Shown here: positions 21,022-21,548 of the stretch, in pieces
Layout of the letters: each line of letters starts with the position of its first letter
Numbering within the stretch: position 1 is the stretch's first letter
Virus record (IMG/VR): IMGVR_UViG_2563366881_000003
Length of the DNA stretch: 43,633 nt
Strand: one strand, 5' to 3'
From: a virus
Lineage: Duplodnaviria; Heunggongvirae; Uroviricota; Caudoviricetes
Translations under genes and position numbers: made by a program
Notes under the pieces: model-generated
What the model was told of the DNA's origin: nothing
Seen by the model: the letters and a program-made list of their open reading frames with translations, nothing else
Databases searched by the model: none

Positions 21022-21050
21022 GCCTCGCATTTGCGGGGCTTTTTATTCCC
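21022..21050 (+). terminator. Rho-independent terminator between the lysis cassette and the DUF2829-like gene
   Basis: CCTCGC-attt-GCGGGG followed by CTTTTTATT. Confidence 0.55.
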
Positions 21051-21068
21051 AACTGCATAGGTAATTTT

Positions 21069-21548
21069 ATGACCCAGCATATTGGCGTAAAACTGATTAA
21101 CGCCTTTCCGATGACGAGACAGGCATATAACGATTTTCGTGGCTGGCAGCTTCCTGCCGGAGAAAACGGCGAGGACGAAGGCTATCTGGTTGAATATCTG
21201 GATGGCGGAAAACCTAACACCGATCGCTTTGATGGCTACGTTAGCTGGAGTCCAAAAGAAGTATTCGAAAAGGCTTATCGTCCGGTATCAGGACTAAGTT
21301 TCGGCCTTGCCATGGAAGCGTTAAAACAGGGCAAAAGTTTGCAGCGGGCAGGATGGAATGGGAAAGACCAGTTTGTTTATCTCGTGAAAGGGGAAAAATT
21401 AGCGTCTGCGTTGGGTTATGGCTTTGGCGAATATGTTGGCGAGTCAACTTTCAATGACACGCTTGTATTGAAAAACTCACAGAACCGCCTTGCTACATGG
21501 GTTCCATCCATTGGCGACCTGATGGCTGAAGACTGGCAAATCATTTAA
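21069..21548 (+). CDS. DUF2829-like (Tad2-like) protein with N-terminal extension, 159 aa (candidate)
   Basis: Motif LSFGLAMEALKQGKSLQRAGWNGKDQFVYLV recalled as typical of DUF2829; start set at ATG 21069 because a terminator lies inside the longer ORF. Confidence 0.45.
   Translation: MTQHIGVKLINAFPMTRQAYNDFRGWQLPAGENGEDEGYLVEYLDGGKPNTDRFDGYVSWSPKEVFEKAYRPVSGLSFGLAMEALKQGKSLQRAGWNGKDQFVYLVKGEKLASALGYGFGEYVGESTFNDTLVLKNSQNRLATWVPSIGDLMAEDWQII

Follow-up and report, generated by a model that had tools for sequence, protein, structure and literature searches.

Proteins that sequester immune signals, known as sponges, are a main phage route past Thoeris, the cyclic oligonucleotide-based antiphage signalling system (CBASS) and Pycsar, and each new sponge family has shown which signals matter. 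In Tad2 of SPO1 (Gp34.65), a single-domain protein of 89 aa from a lytic Bacillus myophage, residues W25, N26, W73 and D79 contact 1''-3' glycocyclic ADP-ribose (gcADPR) and S76 takes part in a water network (bioRxiv 10.1101/2023.05.01.538930). In HgmTad2, mutation of W21/N22 and of S90/T92/D93 abolishes gcADPR binding (bioRxiv 10.1101/2023.11.15.567273). A 41-residue insertion of HgmTad2 forms a cyclic-dinucleotide pocket. Sequestin (PF21825), a sponge for 3' cyclic ADP-ribose (3'cADPR), was discovered through its fusions to Tad2 and Acb4 (bioRxiv 10.1101/2025.07.12.664507), while the founder of the Acb4 family (PF13876) sequesters 3'3'-cyclic GMP-AMP (3'3'-cGAMP), which was bound by all 8 of the 8 homologs tested (bioRxiv 10.1101/2024.12.30.630793). 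Known sponges frequently occur as fusions or in clusters (bioRxiv 10.1101/2025.07.12.664507; 10.64898/2026.06.04.730250), and N4-like phages have anti-signalling hotspots with Tad2, Acb4 and Sequestin (bioRxiv 10.64898/2026.06.04.730250). Here we describe a locus with two predicted sponge genes in IMG/VR record IMGVR_UViG_2563366881_000003, a stretch of 43,633 nucleotides (hereafter the window) that represents a prophage or phage of E. coli/Shigella resembling Sf6 and P22 (Lederbergvirus-type). One gene on its + strand (21069-21548, stop codon included) encodes a 159-aa protein in which an N-terminal domain (aa 1-74, 21069-21290) precedes a Tad2-like domain (aa 75-159, 21291-21545). We consider it likely that this product is a two-domain counter-defence protein, a Tad2-family sponge with an added module, expressed late from the slot between the lysis and terminase genes.

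The Tad2-like domain

The C-terminal half belongs to the Tad2 family. A first-pass annotation, made from the sequence alone, had taken the motif SFGLAMEALKQGKSLQRAGWNGKDQFVYLV (residues 77-106) as a hallmark of DUF2829 and proposed an anti-defence sponge. The profile search bore this out, as residues 77-159 match PF11195 with E=6.3e-22 and 78.3 bits (cutoff 25), covering profile positions 2-73 of 73. PF11195 is the family formerly called DUF2829, and its current name is 'Thoeris anti-defense 2-like'. Among PDB sequences searched with phmmer, the best match was SPO1 Tad2 (8sme/8wje, E ~5e-25), with residues 75-159 aligned to 8sme_A 5-89, followed by ModTad2, SptTad2 and AcrIIA7/HgmTad2. The 85-aa domain aligns with SPO1 Tad2 without gaps, at 47.6% identity over 84 aa by BLASTP. 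Its predicted structure has the Tad2 fold, an N-terminal helix and then an antiparallel sheet with short helices, and the beta2-beta3 loop has the SPO1 length, without the 41-residue insertion of HgmTad2 (31% identity). The equivalents of SPO1 W25, N26, W73, D79 and S76 are W96, N97, W144, D150 and S147. Across 79 aligned homologs each of the five reaches at least 90% conservation, with W96, W144 and D150 invariant, and the HgmTad2 residues W21/N22 and S90/T92/D93 are equivalents of these pocket residues. The protein differs from SPO1 Tad2 in its additional 74-aa domain, in belonging to a temperate podophage of enterobacteria, where it sits in the late operon, and in five peripheral pocket positions discussed below. 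Membership of the Tad2/DUF2829 family is sound on this evidence, and the protein is a strong candidate for an anti-defence sponge.

The program-listed open reading frame (ORF) begins at TTG 20946, upstream of a terminator, and ends at 21548. ATG 21069, with AGG 8-10 nt upstream, is the plausible start codon and gives the 159-aa product; position 21022, where the first-pass annotation began its feature, falls in the terminator. The whole 159-aa protein is matched by phrog_872 (E=3.6e-69), and RefSeq contains a 159-aa protein at 99% identity annotated as 'DUF2829 domain-containing protein [E. coli]'. The Tad2 identity is therefore already implicit in public annotation, which for a homolog in phage Huey reads 'anti-CRISPR', a label disputed in the literature. 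Of 5,426 complete E. coli genomes, only 37 contain the gene nearly whole (at least 80% of query 20990-21570).

The Huey genome carries both a Tad2-type gene (2169-2669) and an Acb4-type gene (2904-3284), and both are annotated as 'anti-CRISPR protein'. According to this label our protein would be an AcrIIA7-type inhibitor of Cas9. AcrIIA7 does have the same DUF2829 domain (PDB 8kbi, E 4e-6; 9kzr, E 1e-5), but the aligned part is confined to about 36 residues around the GWNG motif, whereas with Tad2 the alignment spans the complete domain. Furthermore, those who discovered Tad2 point out that the DUF2829 protein was never shown to bind Cas9 and argue that the family is anti-Thoeris, AcrIIA7 (HgmTad2) itself binds gcADPR and cyclic dinucleotides, and type II-A self-targeting seldom accompanies AcrIIA7 homologs. 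To our knowledge E. coli lacks type II CRISPR-Cas. We regard Cas9 inhibition as extremely unlikely. The Huey label is probably misleading for both families, since those members of Tad2 and Acb4 that have been studied act as nucleotide sponges.

The comparison with Huey also revealed a mosaic. Nucleotide identity per 40-column block is 90-100% at 20869-21308 and 21528-21606 and drops to 28-65% at 21309-21527, so that the two genes have the N-terminal domain and the final few codons in common but differ by a replacement of the Tad2 ligand-binding core. Such a swap fits a recombination-driven diversification of sponge specificity.

The identity of the ligand can be narrowed by comparison with tested homologs. 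ModTad2 and Tad2_68, from the clade that acts on type II Thoeris and binds histidine-ADP-ribose (His-ADPR), show 44.8% and 37.3% identity to our protein, which is closer overall to SPO1 Tad2 than to either of them. They have in common with it an S-x-[G/S]-D motif before helix alpha3 (SIGD in our protein), and Tad2_68 also has N and Q at SPO1 positions 65 and 67. Activities of further homologs are listed by Hadary et al. (Table S2 of bioRxiv 10.1101/2025.08.24.671296), in a table whose column layout is ambiguous, so that the values taken from it here are tentative. In that table Tad2_68 appears to have validated activity against type II Thoeris and a positive flag for type I, S-x-S-D homologs (ModTad2, Tad2_76) seem to block type II, and S-Q-T-D homologs appear mostly to block type I. 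The three tested proteins suggest that S-x-[G/S]-D is linked to His-ADPR binding. Homologs sharing the N-terminal domain include both pocket types. From these few data points the ligand would be of the cADPR type, with His-ADPR also plausible.

Several points weigh against our explanation of the gene. Five peripheral pocket residues are unlike those of SPO1 Tad2 (I63L, T65N, D67Q, H71A and T78G, corresponding to L134, N136, Q138, A142 and G149), and because of these differences any ligand assignment is tentative; the pocket periphery is not of the SPO1 type. Three of the five, N136, Q138 and G149, are the same as in Tad2_68, and such positions, which vary among active homologs too (N, Q and G in Tad2_68), appear to bear on specificity and not on membership. 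In the table of Hadary et al., as far as its layout allows, only 7 of the 15 Tad2 homologs considered were active in heterologous screens, and Tad2_73 (158 aa), the one among those tested with a different N-terminal extension, is listed as inactive. Our literature search gave no binding or phage assay for this protein or for any other Tad2 that contains the N-terminal domain, and a fused 74-aa domain might alter Tad2 assembly. Finally, late expression, discussed below, is deduced solely from a simple consensus scan in which no promoter was matched.

By analogy with SPO1 Tad2, the C-terminal domain would form a homotetramer with pockets between subunits, and these pockets would bind and sequester the ADP-ribose-derived alarm molecules made by proteins that have a TIR (Toll/interleukin-1 receptor) domain. 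The ligands may be 3'cADPR (1''-3' gcADPR) of type I Thoeris and plausibly His-ADPR of type II Thoeris, and their sequestration would leave the Thoeris effector switched off.

The N-terminal domain

The first-pass annotation had mentioned an N-terminal extension of roughly 70 aa. The extension is present, with 74 aa, and is predicted to be more than that, a folded and conserved domain and not a linker. AlphaFold2 models residues 1-74 with a mean predicted local distance difference test score (pLDDT) of 95.2 in the order beta-beta-alpha-beta-beta-alpha, as a small, beta-barrel-like unit associated with sponges. No Pfam or NCBIfam family matched it, and PHROGs gave matches only to PHROGs of unknown function. 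There was no significant PDB match by sequence profile, and the best Foldseek hit had E=1.0. No sequence or structure similarity to Tad1, Acb2, Acb4, Sequestin, Lockin or TadIV-1 was detectable. DUF1653 was its best structural match, a weak one, with no detectable sequence relationship. The motif does not occur among the 84 sponge proteins tested by Hadary et al. (Table S2) or in the candidate list of Tal et al. (Table S2), and no description of the domain was found in the sponge literature or its tables.

Three identities were considered and rejected. Lockin is described as absent from INPHARED complete phage genomes, whereas our domain occurs in 137 such records. An RyR-like Tad protein is contradicted by the lack of a RyR match in Pfam and of a structural match in PDB. 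A decayed Tad2 copy is not supported either, since Foldseek against 8smf gave E=1.9 and a template modelling (TM) score of 0.38, which is not significant.

The domain is widespread. A phmmer search against 1.84 billion representatives returned 1,566 clusters at E<=0.001, in which it is placed N-terminally, C-terminally or mid-protein in proteins of 72-370 aa. Partner domains were counted in the best 149 of the 1,566 representative clusters, and the Pfam partners there are Tad2-like domains (51), Sequestin/PF21825 (38) and Acb4/PF13876 (22). The architectures include N-Tad2, N-Sequestin, N-Acb4, Acb4-N-Sequestin and N-Tad2-Sequestin (N being our domain), besides 9-10 stand-alone copies. One representative (P0237) combines it with a Tad1-like C-terminus, as judged by motif inspection only. 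In Table S4 of 10.1101/2025.07.12.664507 a variant is present in two Lockin homologs, and the domain is carried by ~90 of the Sequestin homologs listed in that paper. Its fusion partners come from at least four, probably five, sponge families.

Conservation follows the domain and not its partner. At least 85% conservation is seen at 32 of its 74 positions, the same ones whatever the partner, including K8, R17, Y20, N21, R24, W26, Y43, N50, Y57, S59, W60, S61 and Y70. Its motifs are IGxK, RGW, GYLVEYxDGG and GYxSWSPK..F..AY. Compared with the attached Tad2 part, the domain shows the higher conservation in 74 of 78 homologs, with a mean identity of 74% against 50%. The 137 phage genome records include N4-like phages, Vibrio podophages and crAssphages, and the domain is found in phages of Proteobacteria and Bacteroidota. 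In CrAssphage sp. C0521BW15 (639-902, 2501-2950) a fusion of the domain with Acb4 adjoins the giant RNA polymerase gene, as in N4, and lies ~1.6 kb from a weak DUF1653-like gene.

Two variants were also observed. Sequestin homologs of Pseudomonas prophages carry a shorter relative, e.g. MTQSYIGTKQILAWEQDKDGQPGYSVKYADGYVSWSPKDVFESAYLPIGH, without the first helix and loop (Table S1, 10.1101/2025.07.12.664507), and the conserved core may be a barrel of the form GTK ... GYxVxYxDGYxSWSPK..F..AY. A protein of 354 aa (P0194) with the domain and Tad2 has an HNH_3 + AP2 segment inside, around which the Tad2 match is split; the arrangement resembles a sponge gene that has received a homing endonuclease, by insertion or by in-frame fusion.

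Because of its fusion pattern, its autonomy and its partner-independent conservation, the domain is argued to have an activity of its own within counter-defence. As an independent module found on many sponge types, it would most likely supply a second binding activity, for another signal or for a conserved protein. One tentative reading, which extends our explanation of the whole gene, is that it is a new signal-sequestering sponge domain and that the protein is a bivalent sponge for two immune signals. The size of the family, the sponges it is fused to, its bead-like orders with other sponges (e.g. Acb4-N-Sequestin and N-Tad2-Sequestin), the Tad1-like and Lockin partners and the stand-alone copies all point in this direction, as does the high conservation, with many aromatic, basic and polar residues. 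The same logic, fusion to known sponges, led to Sequestin, and the architecture resembles the Acb4-Tad2 (Pasteurella phage Pm86) and Acb4-Sequestin (Pseudomonas phage Ab09) fusions that were tested. In these, likewise, several small modules in one polypeptide counter more than one signalling system, but both modules come from characterised sponge families, while the Tad2 partner in the window is an uncharacterised domain. Against a sponge, the domain has only 74 aa and is net acidic, with E32, D36, E42 and D45 forming a conserved acidic cluster. The published structure-guided screen, by contrast, sought positively charged pockets, and its Table S2 candidates do not include the domain.

A somewhat more doubtful reading is that of an accessory module aiding the attached sponge, either a handle for oligomerisation or stability or a binder of a conserved protein. 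Possible targets would be a defence enzyme, as for Tad3-Tad8, which are reported to bind Thoeris proteins directly, or RNA polymerase, as for the Tudor-like CarD, Mfd and UvrD domains. The promiscuous association with unrelated sponge folds is consistent with such a role, and a conserved protein target could account for how strongly the domain is conserved in phages of both Proteobacteria and Bacteroidota. However, stand-alone copies argue for autonomous activity, and the hosts of N4, crAssphage and Vibrio phages differ greatly in their proteins whereas the key residues of the domain do not.

An adjacent Acb4 gene and comparison with phage N4

The first-pass annotation missed that the gene next to the Tad2 gene encodes a second predicted sponge, and it also missed the unusual character of the N-terminal domain. 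The product of this neighbouring gene (21782-22138, + strand, 118 aa) matches PF13876 (N4 gp49/Sf6 gp66) with E=1.7e-34 and 118.6 bits (cutoff 27), and the SPO1 Acb4 structure 9e4w_A with E=0.006. By these matches it is a predicted anti-CBASS sponge of the Acb4 family. The Huey label could suggest AcrIIA9, but AcrIIA9 has a PcfK domain while this gene belongs to PF13876/Acb4, and this identity was rejected. With two predicted sponge genes side by side, one of the Tad2 family and one of a family of 3'3'-cGAMP/CBASS sponges, the slot between lysis and terminase genes would constitute a small anti-signalling island.

The same pair is found in N4. Its gp49 (YP_950527, 'DUF2829 domain-containing protein') has the N-terminal domain and Tad2 and shares 45% identity with our protein over the full length, and it is directly adjoined by gp48, a PF13876/Acb4 protein. 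The two pairs differ in order, Acb4 being first in N4 and Tad2 first in the window, and in place, as the N4 pair is located beside the virion RNA polymerase in a lytic-phage hotspot and not between lysis and terminase genes. The pocket of gp49 reads SQSD, against SIGD in our protein. No functional data on gp49 were found in the literature.

The terminator, the cargo slot and probable late expression

The first-pass annotation described the gene as a moron isolated from the lysis cassette by its own terminator. The hairpin is real. At 21021-21040 there is an 8-bp stem with 6 G-C pairs and a 4-nt loop, followed by TTTTTATT, and the whole intrinsic-terminator-like element, found by scanning and folding, occupies 21021-21048. 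It lies upstream of the gene and is not the gene's own. The hairpin and T-tract (the first 55-62 bases of query 20990-21570) were found in 1,346 of 5,426 complete E. coli genomes, and DLP12-like prophages have the same terminator element after the same 50-aa ORF behind Rz. The cargo beyond it is unrelated in other prophages, a convergent DUF1398 gene in one and Rha in another, and some have none. In the alignment, identity runs through the T-tract and divergence follows directly. Because the same element precedes different cargo and identity ends after the T-tract, the terminator is the end of the lysis module, with a variable cargo slot starting at ~21049.

Sf6 lacks both the terminator and the Tad2 gene at the same position, although the flanks are conserved, and the 234 nt downstream of the Tad2 gene are backbone common with Sf6. 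The 9-bp direct repeat CATTACAAA occurs only twice in the window, at 21001-21009 and 21558-21566 on the + strand, bracketing the segment that is missing in Sf6; the backbone restarts at the right copy. Sf6 has one copy, a state that would be consistent with deletion between the repeats. Judged by its presence and absence between collinear phage genomes, the Tad2 gene is to be regarded as an accessory gene, and in this sense the name moron holds.

As to its expression, a simple consensus scan of 19000-23500 gave no sigma-70-like promoter on the + strand, and its sole terminator-like site on that strand was the upstream one at 21021-21048, so that no terminator was found 3' of the Tad2 gene. Only 20 nt separate the T-tract from ATG 21069. 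In lambdoid phages, Q-modified RNA polymerase reads through intrinsic terminators, and for this reason the gene is most likely expressed through the Q-antiterminated late transcript. Transcription would proceed with the late genes from the late promoter through the lysis-module terminator, and the protein would be present together with the structural proteins. The self-contained unit first proposed, with an expression in the prophage that does not depend on the late operon, would explain the insertion relative to Sf6, the good terminator 20 nt upstream of the ATG and a slot content that differs between prophages. However, that terminator belongs to the backbone of about a quarter of complete E. 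coli genomes, the short gap before the ATG holds no promoter-like site, and the gene is followed not by a terminator but by Sf6-shared backbone. We therefore consider autonomy of the cassette very improbable, and late expression from the Q-dependent transcript is retained.

Gene order around the island

All genes of the region are on the + strand, in the order Q, HNH-AP2, holin, endolysin, Rz, 50-aa ORF, terminator, Tad2 gene, Acb4, DUF2560, TerS and TerL. There is a Q-type late antiterminator (17815-18333; PF06530 Phage_antitermQ, E=1e-25), followed by an HNH-AP2 endonuclease gene (18528-19040). The product of the latter, 170 aa long, has HNH_3 and AP2 domains and is of the homing-endonuclease type. 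Its gene lies between Q and holin, at the position of two tRNA genes in Sf6; a tRNA search of this interval in the window found none. The lysis module comprises a lambda-type holin (19629-19952) and endolysin plus Rz (19936-20846), the endolysin being assigned by homology to the annotations of phages Huey and Sf6. A hydrophobic 50-aa ORF similar to Sf6 gene 65 (20834-20986) overlaps the end of Rz. In many E. coli prophages it is a conserved feature preceding the terminator of the lysis module; the family searches gave no match for it. Beyond the Acb4 homolog and before the small terminase are the 80-aa DUF2560 gene (22242-22484; Sf6 gene 67 / HK620 hkbM, PF10834 E=1e-43) and a 45-aa ORF (22486-22623), both of which are candidates for further counter-defence genes by their position near two sponge genes. 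The Sf6-type small and large terminase genes follow (22688-24519).

Conclusions

The locus offers a clean enterobacterial example of Tad2 with Acb4, both within the late operon of an Sf6/P22-like prophage that is temperate and genetically tractable. Two features go beyond routine family assignment, the Acb4 gene alongside and, more importantly, the N-terminal domain, which also occurs in gp49 of the model phage N4 and is conserved, unannotated and attached to at least four, probably five, sponge families that are otherwise unrelated. The Tad2 core swapped between the window and Huey indicates that prophages exchange ligand-binding modules by recombination. If the N-terminal domain is a new sponge family, thousands of phage proteins, among them N4 gp49 and proteins of crAssphages, would contain it as a universal add-on to Tad1, Tad2, Acb4, Sequestin or Lockin, and it would bind a signal covered by none of its partners.

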